DNA of 62,819 nt, filler included, from Hausera hauseri (lineage: Eukaryota), in assembly GCA_046269625.1 (NCBI GenBank). It is 12 parts of 12 records of this genome, joined end to end, with 100 filler letters (N's around TTAATTAATTAA, not from the genome) between each part and the next. Parts side by side here need not be neighbours in the genome. Positions count along the whole stretch, not along the records: positions 53,927 to 58,727 come from JBJURY010431141.1; 11 more parts are not named here. The stretch is one strand, 5' to 3'. The position numbers were made by a program, and so were the translations under genes. This document shows, piece by piece, positions 14,428 to 62,063 of this stretch (positions within the stretch are counted from its first letter, which is position 1; the number at the start of each line of letters is the position of its first letter). The notes beneath the pieces were generated by a model. It had not been told where the DNA came from. It saw only the letters and a list, made by a program, of their open reading frames with translations, and did not search any database.

Positions 14428-14430
14428 CCG

Positions 14431-15554: not shown

Positions 15555-15570
15555 GTTCTTTTCTCCTTTA

Positions 15571-18226: not shown

Positions 18227-18227
18227 G

Positions 18228-22500: not shown

Positions 22501-23230
22501 ACCCATTTCGTCGAACTTATAGCACTATTAGACCAAAAGGCCGAGATCTTAGCAGAAGCGGTAGTCCGGAAGATTATTTGCAGATACGGGCCACCCGAAC
22601 AAATACTGACAGACCGAGAAAGAAACTTCAAGAGTGAACTGTTTGAGAAAATTACCAAGATTTTTGAGATCGAAAGATTAACTACTACAGCTTACCACCC
22701 CCAATTTAATGGAATGATCGAGAGAATGAAGGCGACCGTTATACGAATTCTATCGACAGTAGTCTAGAAGGATCAGAAAGATTGGGACGAGTTCTTAGAA
22801 AGCACAAAGTTTGACATTAATACAACTCTACATACTGCGGCAGGATTCACTCCATTTTTTTATGATGTACGGTAGAGAAGCTGTACTGCCTACTAATTTG
22901 AGATTGATTCCATATACAACTAGAACGGAAGATTTAGAGCAGAATTTTGTCGAAGTAGTACAATCAAGATTGCACAGGTGTTGGGAAATAGCCAAAGAGT
23001 TATCTAAAGAATACCAGGAACAATTTAAGAAACAGTATGATAAGAAGGCTAAACCACATAAACTAGAACCCGGAAATTGGGTTTACGTACACTACCCAGT
23101 GGCGAAGAAAGGCACATCTCTTAAATTTACTAGAACCGGTAGAGTACCGTATGAAGTCATTAAGATTAAACCGACCACAGTCTAAATAAATAAAAACGGC
23201 AAGGAAGAGGTTGTTTCGATTCAGAGAACA
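19543..23230 (+). mobile_element. Ty3/gypsy pol (protease, RT, RNase H, integrase) with scattered stops
   Basis: ALIDTGSEI; VVLGCDLL; RFCIDYRALN; VMPFG; YLDDVMI; HPIAYGGR...NYSVTKLETLA; MDIVGPLP; TAYHPQFNG; GRVPYEV. Confidence 0.95.
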
Positions 23231-24541: not shown

Positions 24542-24642
24542 CAACTACAGATCGGGTTATCCTATCATTAGACAGAGAAAATGTTTTGTTTCAAAACGAT
24601 GATCTGTCTTAGGATTAATCTTTATTTTTATTTCAGCCAAGT

Positions 24643-24853
24643 ATGACCGAGAAGGCGAAGATTTCATCAGTCAGTTCCGATTTCGATATCGATAATTTCT
24701 TGCAGCAGCACATCACTGTCCTGAAGCCATTATCTAAAAACCTGTACCGACAAATTGGAGAAAATTTGAAAAGCCAGAATTATGTAGAATTCAAACATGA
24801 GAGTAAAATACCGAACGGACTAAAATGGGGTTTAGAAGAGAATCGACTGGTCC
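24643..24853 (+). CDS. Conserved orphan ORF of the gypsy element, after a splice-acceptor-like site; truncated by contig end
   Basis: Pyrimidine tract + CAG at 24620-24636. IDNFLQQHITVLKPLSKNLYRQI aligns with IDDFLQ-YGTVLIPKSKGIYRRI at 40129 (minus). Confidence 0.65.
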
Positions 24854-24953: not shown

Positions 24954-26015
24954 CATGAGTATTTACGTGGTGTTGCCGTGCAAAATTTGTCCGACGACTT
25001 GTCCGAACAATTTAGCCAGTGAATACGTCGTAGATTGGAACAATCCTTTAGATTTATCTGCTGAAAATGGAGGTTGCACTGACGGAATTTAACTTTTCCT
25101 ACGTGCCGTTGACATTGAAAGTTAGTATGAAAATAACGTACAAAAAGACTGTTACTGAAACCAAAACACGTTCTTGTCCTCTGACACTTACTAACAATAA
25201 AATAACTTGTGTAGAATCGGCCATATGCACGACCAAAGCAGGTTCCGGTTCACACAGAAAAATCGGTGTTTATGTTTTAGAGGAAAACTTAGTTTTTATT
25301 GCAAATTTTTAACTTACTGTTACCTTTGAGTCTTCTGAGATGGCGCAGAAATTTGCATTCAAAAATACAGAGTAAAAAGGCAATCATATTAAAAGTGAAT
25401 ATATTGTTCCTCCAAGATTAACTCTGATATATTACCATACAACGGTGAAATTTACCTATACAACAGGAAGGGTGTCAACATCATTCGTCTCTATTGGAGA
25501 CACTGTCTATTGTGAATCTCTAGCACAACTATGTCAACACTTTTTCAATCAAAAGTACAAGGCGATATTTAAAGGTTTTTGAGTCAGATGCAAATGTGTA
25601 CGTTAAGTTTGAACTGGCTAAGGATATTGTCCACATTTCATTGGACAAAGCTTTGGCCATGGTATTACGTTTTGAAAAACTGTGGTTTGAGACATCATAT
25701 ACGAAGACACGAGCAGCGGTGACAAATGTTGCAACACTCAAACCCAAATTGAAAACGGGACTAAGTCAAATGTACATTTACTTGAATGTCACCGTACCGG
25801 TACTCCATGCAATTTATCCGGAAATCAGCAGATATACTGCCTGCGACAATGTTACTGTAAAGCTCAATAATCCAATGTACCTACACGTGATATCTACATC
25901 TATAAACAATGTTGAATTGAATATCCGATGTGATTCGTGCTACCTTATTGAATTATCGTGCGGTACCACAACCAGTCTAACTCTTCATTTCTGTCGAATC
26001 CAACAACATGATTGA
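24954..26015 (+). pseudogene. Maverick/adintovirus minor capsid (penton-like) protein, frameshifted
   Basis: N-terminus YVVLPCK...PNNLASEYVVDWNNPLDLS / MEVALTEF and C-terminus MYIY...NPMYLHV...INNVELNIR...LTLHF match the Maverick penton pattern. Confidence 0.8.
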
Positions 26016-31799: not shown

Positions 31800-34700
31800 T
31801 TCCACATGCCCGTGAGGTAGTGTGTGGATTCCATTGCTGAGGATCTGCCTCTTGCCGTCCATCCAATCTAGGCTTTTTTTCTGTAAGGTAACAATTTGGA
31901 TGTTATGATCCCTAGATTGGATCCTTTTCATTTCCGACAATATGTAAGTCTGTTCCTACAGAACTGTCATATAGTCTTGAAAATTGGTCTTCTTGGCCAA
32001 TGTAGTCCTTTGAACCCATATTGCCAGATTCCTTATTTAACTACATATGTCTAGGGAAAAAATCGATATTATTGCCCTATTCACCTCGGCTTTGAATTTC
32101 CCAAGGACCTTTTTGATGGCAATTGAATAAATGGGATGATCCTTCGGATAGTCCGAAGTATCCATATCCACTGGGCAAAGTCCTTATAAATGTACTCTGT
32201 ATGGGTCTCGGGATTGTTGAATTGCAAGGGCGTTTTCAGCATATGAATGCTGACCATGTTCTCCGCATATATGGTGCTGCTGTGAAAATTGCTGCTTGGC
32301 AATGTGCTTCTTTGCCCGCTTGCACTCAGAGACCAGTTGTTACGTAGCTTGAATTGAACCTTCTCAAAGTCGTTTTTAGCATTGGTCCGTACCTTCCTAT
32401 TAAGATCTATGTGCGGCTGCAGCCAGTTGAACTAGCTGAACTGCAGGGTCCGATGGATCTTAGTAATACGTTGTCTATTTCTGACTGCCTGCTGGAGATT
32501 TATGTAATGGACTACATACCTCTCCCTACTATCCAGATGGCAGAGCAGCTTTCTATGCTTTCCATGTGGTGGAGGCTTGAACTCAGGGAGGAAAGGCAGC
32601 AGTTGATACATTGCATGGATAGAATCCGGATATTCCATATCCATCTCCAGTATGTATGCCGTATCTCCTGTGGGATCCAGGTCCAGCGCAGTGATGTTTT
32701 TAGGATGCTCAAACCACTTGAATTTATCATATGGCAACGGGGCGCTCATTGCCCATCCATACAAGTTGTTGGCATCTAGGTATGATATCTATGAGGATTC
32801 CTTGGATGGATCATACTGGGCCACATATTGTTGTTATCCTCGCAATACCGATGAATGGCCTGGCATATTCCGCCTCTAATGCCTCTCTCAATAATAAGGA
32901 TCATGTCGTAATCCTTTATGATCTGGAGCCTAATACCCGTATAGCGCTGCATAACAGCCCATCTCATCACTGGAGCCGTAAAGAATTAGCTCGATCCAGT
33001 GCATGACTCTTCATCGTAACATCCCTGAAACTCTCGAAGACATCCATCAGAAGCAGACCGTCCGTCTTGAGGTGTATGTCGCTGTATTCCCCTAATGTTC
33101 GGCATTGGAATGCATACCAGACGTTATGGGCATGCTGGTGGTCCTCATCACTTATATGGAAATCTGAGAGGATATTGTAAAAGTCCTTCGTGGCCGGCAA
33201 TGAGGTCTTATCCAGAGTTTCCCACGAAGTTATATAGTCATAGGGAAACATGCCTTTCTTTTTGACGGGGTCAAATGTAGTGGAAAAGAACGGCTTTGTC
33301 TCCTTGAGTTCTTCTGCAGGGAGATTCTTCATTAAACTGTCAAGTGAAGACGACATGAGACTAAAACTCTCTGTGAAGTGAAGCCTGGTTTCCCAACATG
33401 CTTGATAAATATGATGTATTTTTCCTCACTGTTGGGGATCACATCAATGTTTCCTTTACTGGTGCTCAGTTCTCGAACAATGAAATGGAAATCTAAGCCA
33501 CTGAGATTATGGAACACTGCAGGCACATATGTACATGTTTTGCAACGTAGATTTAGTTGTAGCACGACGCGCCCCGATATTTGCCTGTAAAATTGTAATG
33601 ATTCCTAGTTTTATGATTCTCCTTAGTGAATGATTTGGAGCACAAGTGACACGCTGTTGTCTTGCGCCATTCTTTTTCTTGCTACTTCAACATGTTCATT
33701 GTATCCTTATGCTGCTGCTGCTGATATCTGCAATACTATGAGCCATATCATCAAGTTGTTTCATGAAATGAGCTACTGTGCCTGGACCCTGAATAGATAT
33801 AGTTCACTGTCCAGTCCTTCGGCATTCATGCAATATGATTAGAGCTCATGATATTGGTATGCCGTTGTGCGGCTATGTTGGTGATTAGGACTGAAACTCT
33901 GAACTGGATGCAGAATATCCTCAAAGTCGCAATAGATAACTATTAGGACCTTGAGCTTCTTCTCGAACTCCTTGAATTCAATGTAGTCATTCCTAGGAAA
34001 ATCTGGCCTAATACAATAATTGTTGTTTCTGTACATATTGTGCTCTTTCAGCTTCAATACAGCTACATCGCCGCTGAAATAGGAAAAGAATTGTTTACAT
34101 GTTTCTATTTGTCCATGATGTTTCGTAATTTTTGACCACACTAGCCGCTCGAAGTCTTTAATCCAAACATAATGTTTCTTTTATCCGTCGTCTAGTAGGA
34201 GCAGATCGCTATGATCTTCCAATTTAGTATCACATATCTGTAAGGGATAGAATTTGTGCACCTCATTTAATTCCAAGGTATTGATTGATATATTGTTGAG
34301 TCTTCCGAATTTGTCAATTTCATCTATGAATGGTTAGAACTTGATACATTCGAAGTCATAGTTCTGCTGCACATCCTTATATAGCCAAACACATATTGTC
34401 ATGATTATGGACATTGACATGCCTTTTTATTAGTTATTCAACCAGAGAACTAAATATATGAACTGTTCCGCATAGGCGAATACTTGTGCACAGGCACAAT
34501 CAATCTCTTTATGGTTGCCAGAGTCCGTCCGCTCTTCTTACCTTGGCTCTGCCCGGGTTCACAGATCAGCTTCTAGTGCGACTTTGCATCCATTCTGCCA
34601 TGTTGATATTTTCCAATGTGGGTCTATTTTTAGTCTTGAAGGCCATATTGGAATTTTCGCCATCAACATTGATATACGTGGACTCCAGTTTCTTACTTTC

Positions 34701-36033: not shown

Positions 36034-38989
36034 GGTGATATTGGGGATCAAGGTGAACAAGGTCCAGTGGGTATCAAAGGATTTATTGGAAGTATCGGTG
36101 ATAAGGGAAACAGAGGTGATGAAGGCTTGACTGGAGTATTTGGGATCAAAGGTGAAAAAGGGAGAAAAGGAATACGTGGACCTAGCGTCACAGGACCATA
36201 TGGCGATCCAGGCAATATTGGTGAAACAGGTTTATCTGGAAAAACAGGAGATCAAGGCGAGAAAGGTGAAATCGGTATTTTATATAACGTTATTTTATAT
36301 TGGTGATATTTCTAAATTTGAGGTAAAACTGGTAGAACTGGAAGATATGGTAATAAAGGTGAACCAGGCAAGCCAGGAACTAAAGGAAATATTGGAAGAA
36401 AAGGCAGCATTGGAATAATTGGCCTTAAGGGTAAATGGCCTAGAGGGACATATAATTTATTCCTTTTTCAGGAGATAAAGGAGATCCTGGTCCTATTGGA
36501 CCTAAGGGCTTTGATGGAGATAAAGGAGCCGAAGGAGATTTCGGGTGGATTGGGGGAAAAGGTCAAAAGGGAGAAACCGGTCTGTGTGATAAAAGTAAAA
36601 TTGGCGGCCGTGGAGCCACCGGTGCCGATGGTGTTGAGGGAGTTAAAGGCGAAAAGGGATTACCTGGTATTACGAATTTGAACTTTAAATAAGATGATTC
36701 ACTTGTAGGAATACCAGGAAAACATGGTTACAAAGGGAAAAAGGGTTCTTCCGGTATTGGTCCTACTGGTATTGATGGAAATTCTGGACCCAAGGGAGAT
36801 AAAGGGAAAATAGGTTAATTAGATTATCAAGTTTGATCATTTATTTCTAAAAAGGTACAACTGGCCCACCTGGAGACATAGGTAATAAAGGTGATGACGG
36901 TTCGACGGGTTTTCCTGGTTTACGCGGTGACGAGGGAGAAAAGGGTAACAAAGGAATTATGGGAATAGAAGGGAAAAAGGGAGTAGTAGGGAGTTTAGGT
37001 CTGAAGGGTCTGCGTGGTAATAAAGGTACAATAGGTGATATTGGTCTTTCTGGTCCTTTAGGAATCAAAGGAAAAAAGGGATATTTTGGCTCACCTGGAG
37101 AAAATGGTGATCCCGGTTTACGAGGAAATATAGGGCTTAAAGGTGATAAAGGTTTACCTGGACCCATAGGTGATAGTGGTCCTGGATTTCCTGGGGATAT
37201 GGGTGATAAGGGTGATGTGGGAATAAAAGGTGTGAAAGGTGAGTTTGTTGATTCATACACTAGGGGCATTAAAGGAATGAAGGGTGATAAAGGAAAACCT
37301 GGTGAACCTGGGGACCAAGAGGGACAACAAGGAAGCAAAGGTGAAAAAGGTCGTAAAGGATTTTCTGGAAGACCGGGTAGGAAAGGTAGTAAGGGACATA
37401 AAGGCAACAAAGGTGAAAGAGGAACACCGGGTCCACCGACCAACTTTAAATACTTATCATCTTTCCTATTCGCATATCATAGTCAGAATTCAAATCCCAA
37501 TGAAATACGTTGTCCCGGGCAAACGCGTATGATTCATACTGGATACAGTTTTGTTATGATTGACGGAGGTGGCCAATTACATGCAATGGATATGGGTAAG
37601 CGGTTTGACTAATTTGATCTTGGTAATTTGTTATTTTTACAACAGTGTGTGTACAGTCAGTTCGCATTAGATGGATAGAACAAGCCTTTTTAAAACTAAA
37701 ATATTGATTTATCCACTTAGCTTGCTATCCCATGACATACACGTGCATCATATATTTTAATTACATTAAACGATCCTTAGGTGGTAAATACTAATTCTAT
37801 TTATATTGTTATTACTGCTATTCAAGTTGCTATTCAGTAAATGACTAATTTACATTTAAATAAGCTACTTGGCAACTCTCTGCCAACTTTGAATATATTT
37901 ACATTTAAATGTATTTGAATATGATTTTGTGTTGGTAACGGTGTAAATTTTTATATTATTGATTAAATCATATTACGTAGTGACATAATATTATCTAGTA
38001 CGAAACACTTATTGGTGTATAAAGAATTGTTATTTTTTGTATCCAAAGGATTTTTATGCAAAAAGCTTGTGACTAGCCAGGTATAAATACCTGGTCATTT
38101 TTGGTAGAAACACACAACAAAATTTTGCTATCGTGTATTGTTATACTTCGATTTCAATTTGTTCTCTTAGTGAGTTTTAGTCATTTTATGATTATCATTT
38201 TTTATTCATTTTCAGAAATATTATTTTATCGTTTTGCTCTATCTTGTTTTTATTCTAAATAAATAAATAAATAAGTAACTACTAAGTAAGTGGAAAACCA
38301 GCCGTCCAGGTCGAACCCTACCTGACGGCAGCCCGTCTAATTCTAAGTAAAAAGCGAGAGCCAATTTACAACCTTAGTAAGTAAAGTAATCACAGGCCCA
38401 CAGCCTACTTGCCCCAGACACACAGACATAGGATAGCTTAGGTAAGGTCCTAGAGTCTGTCATATTTTTGTGTACTTGTCTCACTGACAACCAGTATCTA
38501 TTTGCAAAGTTTGTACGAAGAATATGATTTTAATACACTATTCAAAGCATTTATTTATGATGTGTTCGGTTTATTGTAAATGTCGATAATTGTATAGAAC
38601 AATTGAGACATTGTTCAAAAAGGGATTCAGTAATTTAGTGTATAAAAATCGATTTTTGTTTGTTAATATATAATTGCATTATATATTCAAATATAGGTTC
38701 TCCAAGTTCCTGTTTAGTCAGATTTTCCATCATGCCGTTTGCTCAATGTCAGAGAGATGGGTCTTGTGGAACAGGAATAAGATCTGATAAATCTTTTTGG
38801 TTAACTTCACTTGAACATGCTACTAACGCCCCCATAGATGTTTCAAAAGTACCCAATAGATTATCTCGATGTGCAGTTTGTGAAAATCCCACACAACCGT
38901 TTGCATTACATTCCCAAACAAAAGACTTTGGTGATATTATATGTCCGACTAACTGGACCAAATTATGGCAAGGATACAGTTTTGTTATG
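36034..38989 (+). CDS. Type IV collagen alpha chain, 3' part (Gly-X-Y region and NC1 domain), spliced
   Basis: Exons 36034-36274, 36323-36430, 36472-36666, 36709-36813, 36855-37595 and 38697-38989 join through GT-AG introns into a continuous Gly-X-Y frame. NC1 motifs: FAYHSQ...CP...GYSFVM...MDMGSPSSCLVRFSIMPF...SFWL...SRCAVCE...ALHSQ...LWQGYSFVM. Alpha-chain type not assignable. Confidence 0.95.
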
Positions 38990-39459
38990 GTATTCAAAAT
39001 TTTATTTTTTGTTATATTTTACAAAACAATGTGGGATTCATTTTAATCATGGTTATGTTGAATGAAACAAGATTATATGAAAAAAACATATATTACGGTT
39101 ATAACACTTTACAACCCCATATTCCTGTATCAGAATTCGATGAACTTTTACCCACATGTGGAGAATTGATATATCTTTTCAAAATAAATTTCAAAAATGT
39201 CACCTTACAAATCAAAAGAAGATCATATGTAGCTGTATTATGTAATATGCATGATACTGTATGTTTTGTAATATAATCAACAAAAATCTCTCAAGTGTTC
39301 TATAACTATGAGTTGTACTACAATATACATCTACAGTGACTCAACAGTCTACAGTACAGNNNNNNNNNNNNNNNNNNNNNNNNNNNNNNNNNNNNNNNNN
39401 NNNTTAATTAATTAANNNNNNNNNNNNNNNNNNNNNNNNNNNNNNNNNNNNNNNNNNNN

Positions 39460-40129: not shown

Positions 40130-40299
40130 TCTGAAAGAAAATACAAAATAAGGGCAATCCTAAAACAAAGTATTGTTCGAAATTTGAACCAATTCTTTGT
40201 TTAATGATGAAATAACCCGATTTGTCGTTGTCAGAATATTTCATCATTAATTTCATTCTGTGGTACCATTACCCTTACTTCCCTCTCATAGATTTTGGG

Positions 40300-41824
40300 G
40301 CGTTTATTGTATCAATTTTTGGTAATCAGTCGACAAAACGCATTTAAGATTATGAGAGCGAACGCTGATGTTCCAATAATTGATATTAACGACAAAGTTG
40401 TCGATTCAGTTAAACTTTTATTTAAATCGTAGTTGTCAACTCATCCTCTGTTCCATACTCATTCAATGATTTCATTGAGACAATTTCGTTTAAGGTTCGT
40501 ACCGTGAACGTTCTGCTTTGTTTATTCTCTGCGTCTACTTGTATAATATAATCCATTTCAGGCTTTAAGTGAGTACATTTGATTCTCTCGCTACATTTTG
40601 TCAATATTACTTTTTGTTTATTATATAATGTTCGGCAACTTATTTTCACGTCGTAATTCAGTGCCTTTTCTACTACAAAGGTTATTTCACGCTGAGGTGT
40701 CCAGTGTTTTACCGGAATTATTTCTAGTTCTTTTTGGGCTGATTTATTTATTGAAATATTTCTGATCAGTGACGGAATAGTGGGCTTTATTTTCGCATTC
40801 GTTGTCATATTAAATAAATTTGACTTAACTGGATTTCTGAGTCGGTAGCTTCCTAAATAAATACTCGACTGGTTGATTCTAATTTCGTATAAATCTAGCT
40901 GAATTTTATATTCATATTTCTGTGGTAACTTGCAACATATTGATGGTTGTTTGACATCGATTTGGCAGTATTGTTGATTATGAGCTTGTATGTTTCCCTT
41001 CAGAAACCGTACTGAGATTACTCGACCGTTTATTAGTCGTCCTTTTGTTTTAACTTGAACACAATTGTTCTTGGGGTTCTCTGAAATACTGGCGATATTT
41101 TCTTCCAGCATTCGCTTTACTGGATCGATGGACTGGAGCATTTCGTTAGGTTTTATCCCATGATGCTTATTCCAAGCAGGAATAACTAATTGAAATTGTG
41201 GTTTTACTTCATGGATTTCAGATAATTTTGATGAATATAGCAGATAGGTAAGGTTGTAAGTATGACCAATTTCCGTGCTGCAACATTGCGCGCGCTCTCT
41301 ATGCCCGAAATCACAATGCCTTGTTTCTTTTGTCATTATATCATCTAGGTCAATTTGAAATCTTCCAGCATCGTAGTATTTTTTTGTATAATAAATCCAA
41401 CACATGAAGAGTTCGGTGAATAATATTTAATGGTGATTGACTGTAATGACGTGATATCTTTTTGTCTTTGGGTTTCTTCTAATACTGGTTTATTTTCTAT
41501 TTTCTCAATCCCATTCTTCGGCGTTACGTATCCATTCTTAAAGGTGGATTCATCATGCGGCCATTCAGCTTGTGTTTTTGGAATATAGGTGGTGATCAGC
41601 GATAGTGCTACGATTATTTTTACGTATGATATCGGTCTGGTGATAACTGACGAAGTTTTGTTTTCTCGTGGCCTTAGATTGTAATGTTTGGCTGCCCTTA
41701 TATCTGTTTTAACTACTCTTTGGATTGATACGACTTCTTCTTTGCCATTTTTATTGACATAAACCGTAGTTGGTGTTGTACGGATGATTTCATATGGTCC
41801 TTTTCCAGTACGTGTTAATTTCAA
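40300..41824 (-). pseudogene. Integrase C-terminus fused to type I membrane protein, paralog of 23231-24541
   Basis: GKGPYEII...HYNLR...RPISYVKIIVALSLITTYIPKTQA in one ORF; then CDF...QCCS, YCQ...ICCKL, CTHLKPEMDYIIQVDA and TM LSLISIIGTSAFALIILNAF. Confidence 0.75.
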
Positions 41825-43379: not shown

Positions 43380-45858
43380 GAAGACGTTTGGTGCTATCTA
43401 CTTATATTTCCATGCTATACATGTTAAATGTGACTGCGTGTTTTGTCTGCATGCGATGTGTTTGCTTGCAGAGGTTGAAGTTGGGGGAAAAATTGTCAGA
43501 TTTTGTTGTGTGTTGTGCCGTGCAAAGATGAATCAGAGTGAAGAGAAGAAGAAAGTGAAAGAGGAAGAGAGATTGTAGGAGACGGACTGTTGAAGGTGTT
43601 CAAGAGCGTCTTTAGAAGAAAAATGACTGACAAAAGGTGTAGTGGCGGATGAAGGAGGAGTGACACAAATTGGAGTAGAAATTGGAATTGTATTAGGTGA
43701 AAGAGTAGAAATAGAAAATGAAACAGAGGGAGTGGTAGATATAGGAAGAGTGATAGGAATAGAAGTAGAAGGTGTAGAATATGCTGAAGCATTACTAGGA
43801 GCAGAAAGAGGAGGTTGAACATGTGTAGCAATAGATATAGGAATAGCAGGAAGTGTGGGAGTGAGAAAAGTGGTTGACGTGTCGATTGGAGAAGTGTCAT
43901 CGACAACGAAAGTGGGCTTTAAGTTGGTAATATGCATGGTAAGTTCTTTGCTGTCTTTAGAAATAATAGCATTGTGCGAATGCAGCTGTACTAGTTTATA
44001 GGGCCCCAGATACCTCGGCTGAAAACCGCACGGCGTTTGATTTTTTAGCCATACGAATTTTGCCGAATACAAGTCTTTGGGTAAATATGTTTTGTCTTTG
44101 TGAAGTAACCTGCAGTACGAATCTTTGCTGACCTCTACGAAGTGATTTTGCGCTGTCCGTATCGTTTCATCTGTAGAAGTGTCGTTTAGGGCAATTAGTT
44201 CGAACAATGATCGTATGGGAGCTCCGAATAAGGCTTCAATAGGAGAGCATCCCGTAGAAGTAGACGGAGTGTTCCGCCAGCCGAGCAGAACGAACGGAAG
44301 AAGATACGTCTAACTAGTGTTGGACTCTGCAAGGATTCTTAGTGACGTTTTCAATATTCGGTGGAAGCGTTCTAGGAGGCCATTCGATTGGAGATGGTAA
44401 GGCGTAGTATGTATGTGATGGATCCCCAATCGGTTAACAAGGGATTTGAAGAGGTTGGATTCAAACTGTGGACCCTGGTCCGTGATGATGAAACGAGGTG
44501 ATCCAAACCTGCTAATCCATGTACGAATGAAAACGTCAGCTATGGTGTCGATGTTCGTGCTCCGCAGAGGGATGGCTTTTGGCCATCGCGAGGAACGTTC
44601 CACCATGATGAGAATGAATTGATAACCGTTATCTGGAGGACGAGGGACAACGATGTCGATATGCATGGATTCGAAACGCGATGTGCACGGAAAGTGGAAC
44701 AGTGGTGGCTTTAAATTCTTAGTTCTTTGGAATTTTTGGCAAGTCACACACTCCTTAATCCATGCCTGCACATCAGAACGCATTGACGGCCATATTACTT
44801 GTCGATGGAGTAAACGAAAAGTGTCTTTAGCACCATGGTGGTGTAGCGAATGTACGCTATTAAATGCTTGCCTCTGCAATGATGGAGCGAGAATTATTAC
44901 GGAATGACCTGGTTTGGAAGTGTCTAAAGCCACGTCGTCAACAATTGTGCAAGACTTGAAAGAATTAAGCATGTCTTGAGGTGGTTGGTTCTGTTGAAGT
45001 TGAGCTTGCGTAAAAATCTGTGAAAAATTAATCGAACTAACCGACTTAGATAAAAAATTGGCAACCAAATTATTAACCCCCTTAATATGTTTTATGTCAA
45101 AGTTAAATGTCGACAAGTATGATATTTGTCGTTCTTGGCTTGTGGAAGGATGTTTCTTAGCCATGATGTTAAGTAAGGGTTTGTGATCGGTGTGTATAGT
45201 AAAATGGCGAGTGACAAGTAGGTGGGAGAAATGCTTTAAAGCAAAAACGATGGCCAATAACTCTCGATAGAACATTGAATATCTGGTTTCAGGGGATGTT
45301 AACTTGTGAGAAAAAAATTCTAGCGGTTAATTTTCTCCTTTGTAGATCTGGTAGAGTACAGCACCTACCGCCGTGGTTGAAGCGTGTGTAGTAAGGATAA
45401 GTTCTGCATCAGGCTTGGGGAAAGCGAGAATGTCGACAATCTTAATTCCTTTGCGTAACTTTTCAAAATTGTCTACCAACTCAGGTGTCCAGCGAATTGG
45501 CTGATATTTTTTGCCACCGCTTAAGTGTTCAAATGGTGCTGTCAATTCGGAGCAATATGGTACATATTTATGTACACAGTGTAGAGTACCAAGGAAGCTG
45601 CAAATTTCGGTGGTCGTACATGGTAGCTGGATATATTTAAGGGCTTCAACTCGGTCTGATTAAGGCGAGTGGCCGTTTGGGTAAATAACGTGGCCCAAGA
45701 AGTTGATGCTTTTTTTGAAAAAATGGCATTTGTCGAAATTGACTTGGAGATTATGGTGGTGAAGGCGTTGGAATATTGCGTGAAGATGTTCCTCGTGTTG
45801 TTTGACCGAAGACGAAACGATCAGAATATCATCAATATAATGGTGCGCAAACGGAAAA
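43380..45858 (-). mobile_element. CsRn1-like gypsy pol remnant (RT end, RNase H, integrase) with Ser/Thr/Pro-rich C-terminal extension
   Basis: RELLAIVFALKHF; HTDHKPLL; WPSMRSDVQAWIKECVTCQ; TDQGPQFES; PRYLGPY; then a low-complexity S/T/P tail. Confidence 0.92.
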
Positions 45859-49859: not shown

Positions 49860-52800
49860 TCAATCGTAGTTCTTTGAATTCTTTCGAGGTGGAAGATCTG
49901 GACCGGCCTATGGACCCGACGCGGAGGCAACGGACGCCTGGCGTGTCCAACCAAATGGGCCAGAGGACGCCGGCCGCTGTGGGCACCATATCATCCCCCA
50001 GTGGCAAATTGAAAACTATAAAAGGTACAAGAGACAGAGAAAAAACCGCAAAACGAAAAGGTGTCTGTGTCAGCTGATCTTAGTGTGAACAAGACGGTGG
50101 ATGCCTTCTATCGATTTTTCCATGCTATACTTGCTAAATATGACTCTGCGTGTTTTGTTTTTATGCGATGTGCTTGTTTGCTGAGGTTGAAGTTGGGGAA
50201 AAAATTATCGGATTTTGTTGTGAGTGTTGTATCGTGCGAAGACAAATTAGAATGAACAGAAGAAGAATGTGAAGGAGAAAGAGAAATAGTTGAAGACGGA
50301 TGGTTGCAGGCATTCAAGAAGGTGTTAGAAGACGGAGAAATAATAAAAAGTGTAGTGGCGGATAAAGAAAGAGAGAAAAAAGTTATAGTAGAAGTTGGAA
50401 TAAAATTGTGTGAAAGAGTGGAAGTAGTAGTGGTATTGGAAAGGAAGAGATATAGGGATAGAAGTAATGAAAAGAGGAAATTGCGAAGCGAAAGTGAAAG
50501 GGGTAAAAGGCGATGTGTGAGGCGAAAGGGAGAAAGAAAGCGCAGAAGAGAGAGAAAGAAGACGGCGAAAAGGTACAAAACGGAAGAGAGCAAGAAGATG
50601 GAGAAGGCAAAGGAGAGTAGTTGGAAGGTGGTATGCAAGAGGTTGGAATGACGAAAGGGGTAGATGGCGAGATTGGTGAAGTCAAAGTGGTATTTGATGG
50701 AAGAAGTACTGTAAAAGGAGACAGCAGGTTGTTGTGAGGGAATGAAAGAGGTGTGAAAAGTTTTGAAGGTGCAAAATCGGATGGAGAAAAAGAGGCTGAA
50801 TTGTGAGAAGAATTTGAAGTAGAAGTTTTTGGAGAAAACGTAGGGGAAAGTGGATTGAGAAGTTGAGCAGAGATAGGAGGTGAATTGTTAGATTGCTGCG
50901 CGTCATGTGAAGATGTTGGTGGGGAAATGGCTTCGATGAGAGATGTATCGTCAATGAAGAAAGCCGGTTTAGCGTTGTTGATGTGAACGGTTACTTCTTT
51001 GTCGTCTTTGAGGATGATGATGTTGCGGGAGTGTAACCGAATTACTTTGTAAGGGCCTACATACTGAGATTAGAAACTACACGGCGTGTGATTATTTAAC
51101 CAAACTAACTTGGCAGTATATAAATCGTCGGGTATGTAGGGTTTATTGCCGTGTAATAGTCTACAAAATGAGTCTGCTAATCTCAACGAAGTGTCTCTGT
51201 GCCGCTTGTATGGTTTCGTCTGTAGGAATATTGCCCAGCTCCGTCAGTTCGAATAATGATCTGATGGAAGTGCCAAATAATGCTTCGGCAAGTGAACAGC
51301 ATGTAGAAGTAGATGGTATGTTCCGCCAGCCAAGCAAAACGTACGGAAGGAGTGTGGTCCAACTGCGATTGGACTCAGCAAGAATTTTGAGAGACGTTTT
51401 CATCGTTCGGTAAAAGCGTTCGAGAAGGCCATTCGATTGAGGATGATATTGTGACGTGTCAATGTGGTTAATACATAGTCGATTGACAAGCGCTTTAAAC
51501 AGGTTGGATTCGAACTGTGGACCTTGGTCCGAAATGATGTGGCGAAGTGATCCAAACCTGCTAATCCAAGTGCGGATAAAAACGTCTGCGATGGTCTTTG
51601 TGTTGGTACTCGGAAGTGGGACAGCCTCTGGCCATCGCGAGAATCGGTCCATCATTGTGAGGATGAACTGATGACAGTTGTCTAGGGGTAATGGGACTAC
51701 AAGGTCAATTTGAACAGATTCAAAACGAGACGTGCAGGAAAAATGAAATAGTGGTGGCTTTAGGTGCTTAGTAACTTTGTATTTTTGGCATGCCGCACAC
51801 TGTTTAACTCATGCTTGCACGTCAGCGTGTATCAACGGCCATACTACTTGGCGCTGTAAGAGTCGAAAAGTGCCCTTGGCACCAGGATAATGCAACGAAT
51901 AGATGCTGTTGAGTGCTTCTTTGTTAAGCGATTCAGAAAGGATGACTTTGGGATTATTAGGTTTGAAGGTGTCAAAGGTCACACCGTCGATGGTTTTGCA
52001 CGATTTAAAAGATTTAAGGATGTCAGGAGGTGGCTGGTTTTGCTAATGTTTGGATTGAGGGAAAATTGGTGTAAAATCAATCGAGCTGACCGATCGGGAC
52101 AAAAAGTCAGCTACTAAATTGTCGACTCCGTTTAGGTGCTTAATTACAAAATTAAATGTGGATAAATACGATATTTACCTCTCCTGACGTGGAAAAGGCG
52201 ATTTCACGGTGAGAATTTGAAGCAGGGGCTTGTAATCCGTTTGTATTGTAAAATTTCGTGCAGTTAGTAGATGTTTAAAGTATTTTACGGCAAGGACCAT
52301 TGCAAACGACTCTCAGTCAAAGGTGAAATATCTTTGCTCTTGTGCCGTGAATTTTCGAGAAAAGAATTCCAATGGCTCATGGGATCTATTTCTGACTTGA
52401 TGGAGGAGAGCACCTGCAGCTGTTGTGGATGCATCCGTAGTTAAGAAGAGTTCTGCATGGGAGTCTGTATAGTCCATTGAATAGGCTGTTTTTTCTTGCC
52501 AGAGCTTAATGATTCAAATGGAGCGCTTAGAGTGGAACAGTGCGGAACGTACTTATGGGTAAAGTGCAAGGTTCCGAGGAAAGAACGCATCTCTGTTAAT
52601 ACACGTGGTAGCTGAATGCTTTTGAGCTGTGTGGTGAGCTCTGGCTGAGGTGAATGTCCGGAAGAGCTAATAACATGTCCTACGAAGTTGACCTTATGTT
52701 TAAAAAAGAAGCATTTGGCGAAATTAATTTGCAAATTGTTTTGGTGCAAGCGCTGGAGGATTTGACGTAAATGTTTGGGGTGTTGTTTCGGGGAAGATGA

Positions 52801-53826
52801 TGCAATTAGAATATCATCAATATAGGGATAAGCAAAGTCTAAACCTGGTAGGACTGTATCTATATGCCTTTGGAAGGTCTGAGAAGCGCTACGGAGTCCA
52901 AAAGGCATGAAGTGGTATTCGAAAAGCCGAAAGGTGTAATGACAGTAGTTTTCGGAATATTTGCTGGAGCCACAGGAATTTTATGGCATTCTTTGTGCAA
53001 ATCAATGCAGGAGAAGATGGTTGCACCATAAAGCCTGTGAAGGATATCGTTAATTAATGGTAGAAGGTAGGTATCCATTGTTGTTATGGTGTTAAGTTGG
53101 CGGTAATCACCATATTGGCGAAAAGTACCATCTTTTTTAGAACCACATGTAGTTGTGAAGACCACGGGGATTTGGATCTTGTGATGATTCCTGATCTTTC
53201 TAGTTCGAGAATATCAGCCTCCACTGCCCGTCTGCAACTAGGCGATAGCGGACGGACCTTTTGACGTATTGGTCTCTGATATGCGGTTACTATGTAATGA
53301 AAAGTGGATTGAGGTGGTACAAATGATTTGTCCTTCTGCAACAGACGCGTGCAAAAAGACAAAATGTATTGTTGTAGATCAGAAGGCAACGATGAAGAGT
53401 TATCAAATGGTGTCGATGCATCGTGATTGGATGCAGTTGAGGTATGAGTTATAGAAAAGGTGTTATGACTGGTGGTATTTGGTGCAGGATGTTTGTGTTG
53501 AAGATGGTGTTGGCATCTGTGCTATTAGTAATAGGTGCCATGCAGTTGGCAATATCGTATTTGTCACCATAATAAAAATTTCTGTACAATAAGTGATTAT
53601 GAAAATAATTTAAATCGGAAGACGTTTTTTTCAGTATCGACTTGCTGGACGCGATCGCCGGGGTGGTCACCGAAATTTTGCTAATTTTGTTAAGATTATT
53701 TTTGCATTTTAAGGAACATTGTTTGCAATCTACAAGTAAATTGTAGTGGGACAAAAAATCTGAACCCAATATAGGTGTGCATACATTGGATACTGTAAAT
53801 TTCCATGTGAGTGTGTTTGGGAGGTG
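49860..53826 (-). mobile_element. CsRn1-like gypsy element: protease end, RT, RNase H, integrase, S/T/P-rich tail, polypurine tract and start of 3' LTR
   Basis: GSDFL; GDYRQLN; MPFGLRSASQTFQR; YIDDILI; MDRFSRWPEAVP; YVGPY. On the minus strand the purine tract GGGGGATGATA (about 49989-49999) is followed by TG and a GC-rich LTR-like segment. Confidence 0.9.
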
Positions 53827-53926: not shown

Positions 53927-56106
53927 ACAACGATAGGTTTGGTTTCCGATAGGTATTGACCATATTGTTCTAACGCGTAGACTATCGCAAGTAATTCACG
54001 TTCAATCGTTTAATAGTTTTTCTTATGTTTTCTTAGCTTCCTTCCTCCAAACGATATAGGATGTTCTTGTCCTTGATCGTCCTTTTGCGACAAGACAACT
54101 CCAATTCCTACTTTGCTTGCGTCCGTTGCTAAGAAATATGGTTTGTTTAATTTGTACATCATTTTGCTGCTTTTGTAATAATGATTTCTCTTGTCCAGTA
54201 ATACTCCATATAGCTGCTATGACACCTGGTTTATTTATAGATTCTTCTTCAATTTGATCTACATCCTCCGGTATTCTCGACATATAATCTGCATTAGCAT
54301 TAGCTTTTCCTATTTTGTATTCAAATTTCAGATTATATGGTTGAAGCAACATGGCCCATTTCATTAGTCGACTATTTGGATTCTTGTGATTTTTCAACCA
54401 CTGTAGGGGTTTATGATCAGTGTAAACAACAATACGTTTAGTTTCTGATAAATACTGGCCATATTGTTCTAAAGCATAAACTATCGCAAGTAATTCTCGT
54501 TCAATTGTCGAGTAATTCCTTTCATGCTTTCTTAGCTTTCTTCCTCCAAAGGATATAGGGTGTTCTTGTCCTTGGTCATCCTTTTGTGACAAGACAACTC
54601 CAATTCCGACCTTACTTGCATCCGTAGCTAGAAAGTATGGTTTTGACATATTTGGGTACGCTAATATAGGTGGGGCTAACAGGTTGTCCTTTAACTGTTG
54701 GTAGGCTTTTTGACATTCCTGGGTCCAAATGGGTTTAGAATTTTCTTGTAGCAATGAGTGCAACGGTGAAGCTATTTGTTGATAATCTTTGACAAATTTT
54801 CGATAATAGCCGGTGAGGCCAAGAAACTTTCGAACTCCTTTAACCGTTTTTGGGACTGGGAAATCTTGTATTTTGTTTATTTTACCAATCTGAGGACTAA
54901 TGCCTTCTTGGCTTACTGTGTGGCCCAAAAAGTCTACTTTAGTTCGAGCAAAACAACACTTTTTTAAACTGATTTTGATCCCTAAAAGTGCGCATCTCTC
55001 CAACATGTCTTTGAGATGTTCTTTGTGCTGTTTATAGTTAGTTGATGCAATTATTACATCATCTACATAGCACATTATATGTGGCGCATCCATCGTAATT
55101 ATATCCATAGCAGTTTGGAATGTTGCTGGAGCATTTTTCATTCCAAATGCCATCCGGTTAAATTCATAATGACCGTCTGCAGTTACAAAAGCTGTCTTTT
55201 GTTTATCCTCTTCTTGAACTTCTATTTGCCAAAATCCTTTTTGTAAGTCCAATGTGGTGAATAACATTTTATCTTTTAACTTATCTAATATTTCATCGAT
55301 TCTAGGTAACGGATAGGTGTTATCCACTGTTACCTCGTTCAGAGCACGATAATCTACACACATTCTAATAGATCCATCTTTCTTTTGTACCATCACAATA
55401 GGTGCTGCCCATGGTGAATTACTTGGTCGTATTATATCGTGTTGTTTCATCTCAGCTATTATTTATTTTGCTCTTTCTCTCTTGTCATAATTGAGCCTGT
55501 ATGATCTATTTTTAATAGGGGTCTCCATTCCTTGTTTTAGTTTGATTTCATGCTTAATGACTGGTATTATTCCAATATCATATTCGTCTACGGCAAGTAC
55601 ATTTTCGTATTGGTGCAATGTTTTTATTATGCCTTCTTTCTCTACATCCGTTAATGTACTATCTTTTCCAAACAAATTATCATCATTCCAATTAATAGGA
55701 GTCTTGACGAGTTTTGTTATTTTCTTATTTTTGTTAAGATGGCTTTCCAATTTATTTATTGACTCGTTTTCTAATCGTATCCCGATTTCTTTTCGTGGGC
55801 TGTATCGTTGTTTTTCCATGAATTCTAACAATTCCTGTACGGTAAAAACAATATTTTCTGTTGCGTTATTGCCAATATCTTTTATGATATATAGATAGGC
55901 AATTCTTGTGCCTTTTCTCAATAATTTTGGTCTATTGGAAGTATTAGCTATTCGAACAATTACTTGTTGTTCACGAATATTGTCAATCGTATGCGCAGTC
56001 CATAATTCATTTTTATTCATGAAGTTTACATTTGGTTCAATGTATACACTTCCTTCGTCTTGACCCTCTACTACAGCATTAAGCACAACTTCTGTCCTGG
56101 CTGGTA
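53927..56106 (-). mobile_element. Ty3/gypsy pol (inter-domain beta region, RT, RNase H) with a partial second RNase H copy
   Basis: SPWAAPIVMVQKKDGSIRMCVDYRALN; YVDDVII; FLGLTGYYRKF; TDASKVGIG; YSTIERELLA; NANADYMSR. One in-frame TAA at 55463-55465. Confidence 0.95.
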
Positions 56107-58727
56107 TTAGTACATCTTCTTTAATAGATACGGTGTCTTTTTTCTCTTTCTTAATTTTTTATATGGTTGAATTTGTTGAGTTTCCAGATTTATACACATA
56201 TCTTTCAATTTTGCTAGCGCATCACATCCAAGTATAGCCTCAGCTACTAATTCATCGGCTATTCTAAATTCCTGTTCAAATTTTTGATTAAGGACTTTTG
56301 TCTCACATTTAATTAAATCTTTCACTTGTACCTTAGTTCCAAACGCTCCGACGTTTGTGATATCTTCTGTGGGTTTTTGTAACTTTTTCTTCAATTGCTC
56401 CGGCAATTGTTTTCGTGAAATCATTGAGGCTGATGCTCCTGTATCGATTATTGCAGTGATGGGGTATCCATCTATCCAAATTACCGTTCTGGGTATTACT
56501 TTACCTCCGTCTATACTGGTTATCAACGCTTCTTTTGGGGCTGATGGATAAAACATGAGCTTCATATGCTTTGGGTCATAATTGTCTACATCGCTTGAAC
56601 AATGTATATCTATATATTCATTAGGAATAAAATGTTGCTGTTCCAAAGGATATTCATGCCACCTTCTCTCTTGCGGAATATCTGACAATGAGGTTCGTCG
56701 TTTCTTACTTCTAGCAGTAATTAAACTCCACGTTCTTTTAGTATCTTCAATCGGTTTAGATTTCTTCTCCTTTGTCCTCTTTGGTAGAGGTTTATTTTTA
56801 TCATTATTATCATCTTCATCTTTTTCATCCTTATTCTTATTTTTCTGTTTCCATTCAGCGTCCTTCTTAATCAAAAAGCAACTAGCTAGAAATGGAATCA
56901 GTGCATAAATAATCCTCCATGTACATCCAACGGCTTGTTTAATACCATATCTTTTAGTTATCATGGTCAATATCGCTTTTACAAAGGCGAAAATATAAAA
57001 TCCTAACCATCCAGAATTGAATTGACCAAACCACATGTACCATCCCCATGCGGTTGCAAATATATCCTTAGCTATTTTCTTTGCATACTCCGGTCCCATC
57101 AAATTTTCCCAGTTAGCTTTACCCGTATGATCGGCTAACACTTTCATTGCCATCTCTGTTAGAACCTTCTGTCTCTGTTGAGGGAACATCATCATTCTTC
57201 TGTGATTTTCCATATCTTGTTCAGAGTACACGCCCATTTTTACTAGGTCTGTTAATGGCTTATACGTTTGTTCAGTTTTTAAATTGATTAAACTAATCCT
57301 CCGGGGTGGCGTAATCTGCTCCTTCTTAGGCATCCTTATCCACAAGTTGTCGCTTAATCGAAATGCTGGCGACATAGTGTATGTGCAATTTTGATGTACA
57401 TATGGTTTCTCCATCGGATCTAATAATATACGAGTAATGGGTTGTAAGAAACGCGGCTTTTCTTTGTACCAAACAGGTAGCTCCATAGTGCAATCAGTGG
57501 TTGGTCGTAATTTGACAGCTACCTTGGTACACTCGAAAGTTACAAGCGTTTCACCCATTGTTCGAGCGAATTTGCCTTCTGCATCAGGAGATTCAGCTGG
57601 ATCCTTTATTATTCCGTCCGTTATTGCTGACAGATATATCCGATTTCTGATTATCTCCCTATTCAGTTTACAATCATTTAATATTATCTCTCGATACATG
57701 GCATAGATGTTTTCCTGCTGAAAGTGATAAATAAAATCAATTTTGTTGTCAAAATAAAGATGAGGCTTCACTTCCGATTTATCAATCTTCCTTTTGGCTT
57801 TTATTACTTCTGTTGTAGATAAGAATATTCCTTTATAATTTGTTCGAAATACTGTGTGATCACATCTTCTAGTGTCACTCTCCAATTTAAATCTCATCCC
57901 ATCCCGAGGGTTTGCTGAATATACTATGGTAGGAGTTTCAATCATATCTGATACCCGATCTAATCTGCTCTTAGATATCTCTTCTTTGTACATCCGTCCT
58001 TTTGTTTCATTAAACTTTCCTACTTTCAGTAGAACTAACTGACATTGATCTCGGTCAACTTCATATGACATGATTGATTCTCCAGTGTCACATTCTTTAT
58101 TATAGTAATCACATTCGGGAAATGTCATCATCTTTCCTGAAGATAATTCAAAGAGGGCATCGTATTCTCTCAACTCAACTTGATAATCTTCAATAACCAC
58201 TATATTATCTAAAATTTCACCATTAATATTATAAGATTCACCTTTACAATATCCCGTCTTATCGATTGTCCCAGCCACAAAAATTCTTTTATTAATGATT
58301 TTTCCTTTCTGAGCTTTCAATCTAATATTACCAATGCTAATCTGTTTTGTCACAAAGGCCTCTATGCACATTCGTTTACTTATAGGAAGTGGTTCAAATG
58401 GAGTAGTTGGTTCGACTATTGCAGAATTTCGATACCAATAACCACAAATGAAATAAAAATGATTTTTCCGAACAAAACATTCCTTCACTTTAGTCTTTAC
58501 AAACTCTGATTCCTGATAGACATAATATTGTTTTTCGGATATCGTAGTCAATGACGCTGGATTAGCAAATGGACATTTTTCTAAGTCCAACAAGGAATAT
58601 ATTGGGCCTTCTTTAGCTTGGCTACAATCATAAGCAATAATTGAGAGTGCTTTTGGCATCAGGCTAAATAAAAGAAGTATAGGTATAACTTTAGTTAGCC
58701 ATGATAAATCAAAATCCGGTTGTTGAT
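56107..58727 (-). CDS. Chuvirus-like (class III) envelope glycoprotein fused in frame to retroviral aspartic protease; ORF open to contig end
   Basis: Upstream frame reads QQPDFDLSWLTKVIPILLLFSLMPKALS|IIAYDC. The AYDC...SLLD..KC start, Cys pattern, GETLVTFECTKVAVKLR...CTMELPV...FLQPITRIL, GVYSEQD and C-terminal hydrophobic region recall chuviral G. Then AIIDTGASASMI and ILGCDAL (protease). Confidence 0.8.
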
Positions 58728-59299: not shown

Positions 59300-59630
59300 C
59301 CCACTACTCGAACAATCTCAGCAGTCCAGTAGCAAATCATTTTTTGATAGCCTCAAAAAATCACTGTGAATCAGTTCACGACGAGTAACACATTTTGTAA
59401 CGAAAGCTAATATTTTGGATGAAGAGAAATTGATCGAAGATGCAAAGGAAGATGCAACTGAAATTAATGAATACTGTACTAATGAAAAATTGAGTATCAT
59501 TTTGTTTTTAATAATGACCAAAGTAAATTTGAGTGCGAAATGGTTTGTGATCGTACATATAAAAGAATAGGTACTAAACATGTACAGTCTCTAGTTGTTG
59601 ATAAGAATTTAATTTCACATTCTTTTATAC
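59300..59630 (+). pseudogene. pogo/Tc1-mariner superfamily DDE transposase fragment
   Basis: ISSRRVTHFVTK...DEEKLIEDAK, then FNNDQSKFECEMVCDRTYKRIGTKHVQSLVVDKNLISHSF, like the N-x-DQ first catalytic motif of CENPB-HTH pogo-like transposases. Confidence 0.6.
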
Positions 59631-62063
59631 GCTTCTTGAAAATGTGACATTTGGCGAAATTAATCTTCAGGTTATGCTAGTGTAAACGTTGAAAGATTGA
59701 TCTGAGGTGTTCCTGGTGTTGTTGGGTTGAAGAAGAAACGACTAAAATGTCATCATTATAAGGATGAGCATAAGAAAAATCAGAAAAAATAGCATAGATG
59801 CGGCGTCGATAGGTCTGTGCAGCGTTCCTCAGACCGAAAGGCATGTGTAGATATTCATAAAGGCCAAAAGGAGTGGTCACGGCTATTTTTTCGATATCCT
59901 CAGGTGCCACATGAATTTGGTTGTAGGTTTTGGCTAAACCAGTGGTAGAATAAATTGTGGTGGAATTGAGACGGTGTAAGATATTCTTAATGAATAGCAG
60001 CGAGTATGCATCCATTATGGTCAAAGTGTTCAACGGACGATAATCACCGCATGGTGTAAAAGTTCCATCCCTTTTTTGCACGACATATAAAGGCGACGAC
60101 CATGAGGATTTGGAGCGATGTACTATGCCGGAGCGTTTGAGATCTAGAAATTTGGTTTAAACGGCCTGTCTATGACGCGAAGATAATGGACGCATTTTTT
60201 GGCGATAGGTCTTTGATGTTGTTACAATGTAGTGAAAAGTGGTATTTTCTGGCGTAAAAGACCTATCTTTTTAAATTACTCGAGAACAAGATAAGTTAAT
60301 TAATTGCTGCAGATTTGCAGGTAATTGTGAAAGGTTTGGTGAAAGCAGGGCTGTTTTATCAGTAACTGTTGCAATTTGGACGTTATTTGGTGATTTAAAA
60401 TGAAGTGGTATTGAATATAGGATTGCAGTATTAAAGATGATATTGTAGGTTTTGGTATTATCTAGTGATTTGGCAGTGGCGATAGAATCACGCTCATCGT
60501 CGTTCAATCGTCATCAATGTTTTTCTTCAATAATTTACAAAACAAATGACCATCAGTTGAAATGGTATCAACTTGATCGATTTGCTCTTTGTTGTATCCA
60601 CTTGTTAAACAACGTTGTTTGCAATTAACAAGGAGGTTATCGTGTGATAGAAAGTCGGACTCTAAAGTGGCTGTTTGGACGTTTGCAACAGTAAAATACC
60701 GTTGTTATTTTGATATTTTGGTGTGCAAAATCGGCATCAATGATGATATTTTTGTACTTTATCAATAAATCTGTCATGGTAAAAGCAGAACAACAATCGT
60801 GCGGGCGAAGACGACCGACCTCTGGGTACGGAGCGGGTGCGATCGGGTCCAAAACCCTTTCGTTGTGTCATAGAGATTTCATTTAATCTATCGTTAGTAT
60901 TATTAAATGTAGTATGTATGGTCGCGTTTTCGGCTCGCAACTGTTATATTTGGTTTTCTAATGTGTTATCCTTTGTTGTAAGCGCTGCAGAAATAATAAG
61001 TTGTTTGTTTAGGTGTAAAATTTCGTAGGCTTTTATCTGAAAGTTCAGCTAGTTTTTCTAGCGTCGTTGGTTTCTCGACGACGGTAAGCAAGGCCCTAAT
61101 TTGACTGGGTAAAGCGTTAAACCAGTAAGTTCTCAAAAGGTCAGGGTTGTGTCGTGTGATGACACCCAAAGTTTGCAGATTATTCAATAAGGTGCGAAGA
61201 ATGTCGGATTGCTTTTGGGTACCCAAAGCGTTATCGTTGAAGAAACGTTGAATTATTGTACCTATGGATGGTTCGGTGAGTTTGAAAATTGCATTTTACA
61301 GCTGTGTATATGGATTAGCGTGTTGGAATATCTCGAGTAGATTGTGTATAGGCATTTTGATGTTGCCAGGTAAAAGAAATAGAAGGCTGTTGGGCTTAGC
61401 CAGAGACTGGGTAATGTCAGAAGATTGCAGATAAAATTGGTGGAACTGTAACCAAGTTTTACTGGAATCTTGGTTGTCAGTAATAAAGTCTGTACATTTG
61501 GAAGATGCTAAACGTGTGTTGAAAGTTGAAGGAATAGTGCTAATAAGAGTGATGGCATTGGAGGATGTAATGGAAATTGTTGGTTTTGTAAGATAATTAA
61601 CATGTATTGATTTACTAGTAAGTTTGCCAGTGGTATTTATTGTTGGAGACGAGTTCATGCCGCCACAGATGCGAGTGTATATGGAGGTAAATAAGGAGTA
61701 AAGAAAAGTTTAGAATTTCAGAGATAGGTATGCTAGAGCCGTTGTGTGTGATATAGAAATTGGATGAGCAAATAAAAGTACAGGTGGCGTTGTAAATGTC
61801 TGTAGTGTTTATGTACGATGTTTTAATTGTGTAGACATGTTCATTATTTAAAAATAGAAAAGGGAAAATGGGGTGAATTTATAGCCAGGAGCGTGTAGTG
61901 AGGCCCAGGCGAACGATGTCGTCCAACCGCCTGGCCTAAGGCCGGCGACCGGGAAAACGTTCCCACCGTCACGGACCACAAATTTCGGAATGATCCCAAC
62001 CCATTCGGCGAGTTCGGCTGGATAAACAGAGGCTATCATAGGCGTTTTCGGTTTTATGTTTGG
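59630..62063 (-). mobile_element. CsRn1-like gypsy element 5' half (leader, gag, partly deleted protease, RT)
   Basis: Gag LLRTYWFNALPSQIRALL...LAELSDK; CFYHDRF knuckle; RT CGDYRPLN, TTPFGLYEYLHMPFGLRNAAQT, YNDDILV; GC-rich leader or LTR-like stretch 61880-62063. Confidence 0.88.

Follow-up and report, generated by a model that had tools for sequence, protein, structure and literature searches.

A chuvirus-type fusion glycoprotein in frame with the protease of a damaged, likely Burro-like Gypsy element

Introduction

Gypsy elements that carry a fusion glycoprotein ahead of, and in frame with, their polymerase genes have been described from planarians. Excerpts of the 2019 report on Burro1-4/GYPSM1, giant Gypsy elements found in Schmidtea mediterranea and in further members of the Dugesiidae, give the domain order as Gag, a Ubi/SUMO-like domain, BCL2, an in-frame Env, protease (PR), a dUTPase-like domain, reverse transcriptase (RT), RNase H (RH), and integrase (IN), with the Env between gag and pol homologous to mononegaviral glycoproteins (PMC6431247). 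Burro proper is over 25 kb long, with an ORF of ~4,900 aa (ORF1, 4,873 aa) that includes MATH, Smc, and BIR extras (PMC6431247, excerpts), and Schmidtea transcribes BURRO1 and keeps it under PIWI control (PMC8532177, excerpts). In its available portions, a 2026 catalogue records Ty3/gypsy elements with a gB-type Env and the order GAG-ENV-POL in nematodes, bryozoans, and flatworms, where they are not monophyletic; it states the entry mechanism of gB-type errantiviruses to be unknown and cites a 2022 nematode study for the NERV elements, which form an independent clade there (PMC13524379). Chuvirus G has also been captured by BEL/Pao elements of mosquitoes (PMC7642597, excerpts).

Here we describe an element of this kind in a stretch of 62,819 nucleotides from the Hausera hauseri assembly GCA_046269625.1 (hereafter the window). 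What the contig holds is very probably a damaged fragment from the interior of a Gypsy element, with fusogen and protease in one frame, likely of a Burro/GYPSM1-like lineage, the intact members of which would make a membrane-threaded polyprotein.

Results

Setting of the contig

Small contigs, each some 4-8 kb long, make up the window, and spacers of 100 bases (N44-TTAATTAATTAA-N44) separate them; sequence past a spacer is therefore not to be read as neighboring. The Env-PR element sits on a contig of 4,801 bases, 53927-58727, a length that leaves no room for flanking LTRs, and the contig end next to the spacer is genuine. On the contigs placed beside it are further pieces of Gypsy elements, exons of collagen IV, and one phage fragment. 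Divergent exons of a collagen IV gene with C4 domains, at 36300-39000 (+), serve best among the window's sequences as a host marker and identify the host as an animal, the phylum not being given by the exon; the Atlas assigns them to the C4 family only, and comparison of the exon with 12 candidates yielded no homologues. A separate contig carries a phage head module, 13122-18859 (-), made up of a P22-like portal (E = 1.8e-25), a capsid protein (PF13252; E = 1e-13), and an SU10 adaptor; the module probably derives from a symbiont or contaminant, and no relatives of it were found in the genome contigs searched. Two further frames, 25524-26012 (+) and 32970-33425 (-), had no Pfam match and resemble, by eye, fragments of a Polinton penton and a protein-primed polymerase. 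Rfam returned no matches.

One frame joins a class III fusogen to a retropepsin

A single frame on the minus strand, 56107..58727, runs through 873 codons without an internal stop and is open on its 5' side, where its first codon abuts the N spacer; the chance of 872 stop-free codons at the local composition is ~2e-31. The sequence-only reading of the window had described an uninterrupted frame open to the contig end, consisting of a signal-like segment, a Cys-rich ectodomain starting with IIAYDC, a membrane region, a charged linker, and a DTG protease, and each of these elements proved correct. In translation, a signal-like hydrophobic segment occupies about aa 5-36 (58642..58701 for aa 10-29; Kyte-Doolittle peak of 2.15) and ends in A-L-S before IIAYDC. 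The fusion ectodomain and its membrane-proximal region (aa 30-569; 57022..58641) open with this motif at aa 30 and contain 14 cysteines through aa 448. Two hydrophobic segments follow, the first of which is the likely transmembrane anchor (aa 570-593; 56950..57021) and the second of which includes Arg and Pro (aa 599-622; 56863..56934). Beyond them, a charged linker that is poorly conserved among the sequences compared (aa 623-745; 56494..56862) leads to a retropepsin-type aspartic protease (aa 746-842; 56203..56493) with its DTG at 56445-56437, which matched Pfam RVP with an E of 9e-11 and the FIV protease with an E of 0.005. The 873-codon frame contains two N-glycosylation sequons and no furin site of the form R-X-K/R-R.

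Judged by profile matches and a predicted structure, the glycoprotein is a class III fusogen of the chuvirus/herpes-gB type. The Pfam family Monjiviricetes_fusion (PF24664) spans aa 15-659 with an E of 2.4e-80, and the Atlas places Env with PF24664 clusters at a score of 0.95 and a recognition value that is low. Against the PDB, phmmer with the single protein returned proteases only, and an Env profile matched gB weakly (E = 0.017). The AlphaFold2 model, built on an alignment of 114 sequences, has a mean pLDDT of 91.1 and displays the features of a gB/G-like fold, namely a long central helix (48 residues, aa 293-340) and an extended β fusion domain. When this model was compared with the PDB by Foldseek, all 38 rows among the matches listed were herpesvirus gB (best E of 2.9e-12, TM ~0.4), and in BFVD the best matches were glycoproteins of chu-like and related negative-strand viruses (E = 3e-34, TM up to 0.70). 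By both alignment and model the ectodomain is complete, with every conserved Cys present. The structural comparison with chuvirus G and herpes gB that had been proposed as a check thus found similarity to class III fusogens and, together with the Pfam and Atlas assignments, upholds the earlier call of a chuvirus-like fusogen.

The fusion recurs among relatives

Searches at E up to 0.001 gathered 953 representative relatives, 27 of which, picked mainly by length or rank, were scanned with Pfam. In 13 of the 27, a fusion protein and an aspartic protease lie in a single chain, at 26-37% identity to the window frame; RT is also present in six of these 13 relatives, a Gag marker lies N-terminal of Env in six, and two (P0003, with a length of 3,181 aa, and P0024) have the full Gag-Env-PR-RT-RH-IN in one chain. 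The sibling P0005, 85% identical to the window frame over aa 2-346 including the residues before the signal, continues in frame for 780 residues upstream of Env; these residues begin in capsid-like fashion and include a zinc knuckle, and they gave no match to a MATH domain at E up to 1. This zinc-knuckle Gag answers the question, raised from the sequence alone, of whether gag shares the frame: the proposed order gag-Env-PR-pol holds, with gag supplied by the sibling. Gag with CCHC knuckles is in frame 5' of Env in P0005 and five other relatives, and is not found on the window contig.

Between Gag and Env lies a helical insert, a profile of which (six relatives including P0005) matched Bcl-xL with an E of 2.8e-5; Bcl-2 family proteins account for 59 of the 60 rows among the matches listed, the top row being a designed helical repeat protein matched via four weak repeats. 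Single-sequence Pfam matches of the relatives to Bcl-2-like domains fell under the cut-off (E of 0.00096-0.055), as did ubiquitin-like signals in P0005 (ubiquitin, E = 0.031) and P0003 (UBX, E = 0.0061).

An Env tree (FastTree) built from 53 of the 132 eligible sequences unites the window copy with 17 relatives in an 18-member clade (support of 0.98), apart from the stand-alone glycoproteins, most of which are only 22-26% identical to the window Env by phmmer. A protease is present in 13 of the 17 clade relatives, and the other four sequences stop at or before the anchor region. In its RT-RH region, the window copy shares 44-50% identity with the six relatives that carry both Env and RT, and 34-40% with four RT fragments found elsewhere in the window. 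The tree of RT sequences, proposed earlier as a check, is poorly resolved internally (bootstrap of 17-49) and places a window element in which no Env was detected (19864-21345) among the Env bearers. Searches of metagenome and viral contigs for related loci gave 72 and 2 pattern matches, respectively, none of which was confirmed. On these sequence comparisons, the fusion of Env to PR is a family trait and no accident.

Several of the relatives P0002, P0006, P0008, P0009, P0010, P0014, and P0017 have at least two tandem protease-like domains, the C-terminus of P0002 consists of ankyrin repeats, and AT-hook-like GRP[KR] motifs occur upstream of Env in five relatives. P0011, a Gypsy Env-Pol polyprotein, carries the label hypothetical protein in a metagenome bin assigned to Flavobacteriaceae and is likely mis-binned eukaryotic DNA.

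Other Gypsy elements in the window

A related Gypsy element at 18960-24853 (+) comprises PR, a dUTPase-like spacer, RT, RH, and IN; a fusion protein was not detected within 800 bases upstream of the protease, and the element may have lost or replaced Env. At 23100-24600 (+) and 40200-41600 (-), the integrase is followed by a signal-like segment and a Cys-containing ectodomain of ~300 aa without a Pfam match, to which the protein at 23100-24600 (+) adds a C-terminal membrane segment. A similar membrane protein follows integrase in P0003, P0009, and P0011, and these proteins may represent a second surface protein of the Burro-like lineage. A different lineage of Gypsy elements, decayed and lacking Env, is represented at 4223-8892, 43536-45858, 50383-53826, and 59584-61709 (-).

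Pol is damaged in the window copy

Downstream of the protease, the sequence-only reading had seen a standard gypsy RT-RNase H. Both domains are present on the minus strand in one frame, 55462-54026: a Gypsy-type RT at 54914..55390 (Pfam RVT_1, E = 2.5e-38) and RNase H at 54335..54649 (Pfam RT_RNaseH, E = 1.9e-38). Added to that description are a spacer, a duplication, and an absence. A weakly matched, dUTPase-like spacer lies between PR and RT (55835..56140, minus strand); its profile, with the window sequence first, matched only dUTPases in the PDB (5 of 5 matches, best E of 0.024), and a Pfam scan of the spacer by itself returned no match. In the expected position of integrase is a second RNase H fragment of sibling-copy origin (53927..54144, minus strand; 83% identical to 54643-54426), at which the contig ends, and integrase is absent from the contig. 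Two interruptions affect this region: a shift between the PR frame and the downstream pol frame within an A-rich stretch (56110..56160, minus strand), which comparison of frames and run contigs marks as a likely lesion, and an in-frame stop at the start of RT (55463..55465, minus strand). With a frameshift, a stop, and no integrase on the contig, the window copy as assembled is unable to make RT.

A family of many diverged copies in which pol and apparently Env are maintained

Three public runs (X1-X3) contain the stretch; no RNA source is listed among them, which has no bearing on expression. Short contigs matched at 85% likeness numbered 20,665 in X1, 2,722 in X2, and 614 in X3, most of them 85-95% alike, totals that are not a copy number, and X1 may be the source sample. 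Run contigs cover 30 of 30 bins of the window contig in each of the three runs, and no piece among those listed spans the linker from anchor to protease. Many diverged copies therefore exist, with Env and pol both present.

Variants among these copies fall largely at third codon positions in the Env-PR frame (14 of 16, p = 1e-5) and lean the same way in the pol frame (12 of 21, p = 0.02), counts that rest on 38 of the 40 sites listed out of 991. Env is apparently under purifying selection on this small sample of sites. At the codon of the pol stop, 8,466 of 8,491 summed X1 depth differs from the window copy, so that the stop is private, or nearly so, to that copy. Its absence from nearly all sibling contigs, with the third-position lean, indicates that pol is maintained in the family. 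The contrast drawn earlier between a glycoprotein frame without stops and a pol with lesions accordingly stands for the window copy and gives no hint of domestication.

These observations bear on a reading in which the lineage is correctly assigned but Env is no longer infectious, having been turned to intracellular particle assembly or co-opted by the host. Such a reading would fit the intact Env-PR frame beside a broken pol in the window copy and the description of errantiviral gB-type entry as unknown in the available text of PMC13524379. We consider it unlikely, given that pol is kept in the family, that the family has many copies, in contrast to a domesticated gene, and that the ectodomain is complete with its conserved cysteines.

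The shift after PR could itself be functional, a programmed -1 shift that sets the ratio of Gag-Env-PR to Pol: the change is -1, an in-frame heptamer A AAA AAG lies at 56143-56137, and a length difference at the site is seen in part of the X1 depth only. Yet length differences at the site occur in contigs of X1, X2, and X3, four further such heptamers lie within the frame, no stimulatory structure was found downstream (z of 0.32), and six of the six relatives with RT read from PR to RT in one frame, which makes programmed shifting improbable. A likely lesion remains our reading of this site.

The second hydrophobic segment and the proposed topology of the polyprotein

A signal-like segment precedes the conserved [AGV]-[YF]-D-C start in 20 of 21 sequences, and the remaining sequence begins just ahead of the motif; in full-length relatives, this segment is internal to the polyprotein. 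In 19 of 20 sequences, the second hydrophobic segment scores below or close to the first; the window copy differs in that its second segment is slightly the stronger (1.78 for the second and 1.63 for the first). The second segment contains Pro and usually a basic residue in polyprotein members and occurs in stand-alone glycoproteins too. From these features, aa 599-622 are likely a membrane-associated helix at the cytosolic surface and not a second crossing, a reading that would place the protease and Pol in the cytosol on the tail of Env.

Discussion

The arrangement described above suggests how intact members of the family might be processed. One long polyprotein would be translated, and its internal hydrophobic segment would serve as a signal that threads the ectodomain into the ER, as internal signals of similar kind do in the structural polyproteins of alphaviruses and flaviviruses. 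Signal peptidase would likely cleave ahead of the conserved start (predicted cut before x-x-[AGV]-[YF]-D-C), leaving the Gag-Bcl-2-like part in the cytosol, tethered via the leftover signal helix. The same cut helix might also hold the Bcl-2-like domain at the membrane, in the manner of tail-anchored Bcl-2 proteins. Transfer would halt at the anchor (aa 570-593), so that linker, protease, and Pol would hang on the cytosolic tail of Env. At the membrane where particles bud, Pol would then be collected by Env trimers and Gag, and there the protease would release capsid, RT, and integrase. Fusion of the particle with another cell would fall to the gB-like trimer, and the element would probably pass in this way from soma to germline or stem cells. 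A signal-peptidase cut and a cytosolic protease, both proposed in the sequence-only reading, are plausible and fit the sequence. No description of the processing or topology of such a polyprotein was found in the literature searched, subscription papers lying outside the search, and the words "polyprotein" and "bcl" have no occurrences in the available text of PMC13524379, where processing is not treated.

Taken to its full extent, the model would describe a compact, heavily amplified, infectious Burro-like retrovirus, possibly of a non-planarian host, that makes one membrane-threaded polyprotein, packages Pol via the tail of its fusion protein and not as Gag-Pol, and keeps the producing cell alive through a Bcl-2-like domain on the cut signal helix. 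We put this forward tentatively, as a possibility that we would not yet bet on. Were the inferred processing true, retroviral assembly would have been solved in a manner unlike Gag-Pol packaging, and the elements might move between host cells.

As to lineage, the flatworm elements listed as Platyhelminthes C1a errantiviruses (Smed_errantivirus_1-6) share with the window family an Env of HSV/gB type as well as the order GAG-ENV-POL (PMC13524379, available portions). Compared by eye with the six Schmidtea rows of this group in supplementary file 3 of that work, Env domains I-II matched at 8 of 8 cysteines (Cys 84, 95, 121, 161, 206, 213, 229, and 289). A first motif search of the file gave no match, since it covers domains I-II only; the motifs YQES and VYQE, searched for across the whole file, nematode C2 rows included, occurred in Schmidtea rows alone. 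The window element belongs to a family distinct from Smed_errantivirus_1-6, likened to them by eye.

NERV elements, which are Gypsy/Metaviridae, likewise place Env upstream of pol (as reported in part in PMC13524379), and the same domain order could have been reached in NERV or another independent GAG-ENV-POL lineage of nematodes or other hosts, rather than in the flatworm one, given that such elements are not monophyletic and that the window identifies its host only as an animal. On the other side, the eight nematode C1 Env rows are clearly unlike the window Env by eye, as are the 10 bryozoan rows, and both sets are without its motifs (PMC13524379, supplementary file 3; C2 rows were outside the by-eye view), while the Bcl-2-like insert and the dUTPase-like spacer agree with the description of Burro in excerpts of PMC6431247. 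An origin outside the flatworm lineage therefore has little probability. Sacco et al. (2022) are said to describe NERV with a continuous gag-env-pro-pol frame. Least credible of all is a one-off chimera or misassembly in which an endogenized gene for a chuvirus glycoprotein became joined to the protease of a Gypsy element, for although the contig is short and fragmented, its 3' end is visibly chimeric or duplicated, and its Env-PR linker is not spanned by any single independent contig among those listed, the sibling comparison meant to expose such an accident found the same fusion in nearly half of the relatives scanned, with Env and RT indicating the same relatives and run coverage agreeing.

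BEL/Pao elements with chuviral G share the PF24664 class III fold but carry the glycoprotein after pol, as illustrated by P0134, in which DUF5641 precedes the glycoprotein. The window RT is of Gypsy type, and an assignment to BEL/Pao is ruled out by an Env that precedes PR and an RT-RH nearest to Gypsy-type polyproteins.

Burro is the nearest described system. Shared with it are an Env with mononegaviral fusion homology in frame between gag and pol (gag being seen in siblings), many copies, a BCL2-like and, on signals below the cut-off, possibly a ubiquitin-like domain ahead of Env (in siblings only), a dUTPase-like domain between PR and RT (a weak match in the window family), and a Gypsy-type PR-RT-RH on the contig, with IN in relatives only. 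This likely lineage call is a match of domain order and of sequences viewed by eye. The window family is apparently far more compact: P0005 has 780 aa from the start of Gag to Env, without a MATH match, and the full relative P0003 has 3,181 aa compared with the 4,873 aa of Burro ORF1. Burro proper, as a giant element, was rejected on this ground, judged on P0005 and P0003 only. Each testable feature of Burro but its giant size was found, and we have therefore filed the family as compact and Burro-like, not as Burro.

The novelty that the sequence-only reading implied for an Env upstream of PR-Pol does not hold, that architecture having been published for planarian Burro in 2019 (PMC6431247) and in the GAG-ENV-POL catalogue of 2026 (PMC13524379); the Burro-like family itself is likely one new family of it. 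The family is many-copy, with an Env apparently under purifying selection. The metagenome proteins reveal that polyproteins of this type make up a broad clade: Env and protease share one chain in 13 of them, and several are shorter than Burro.
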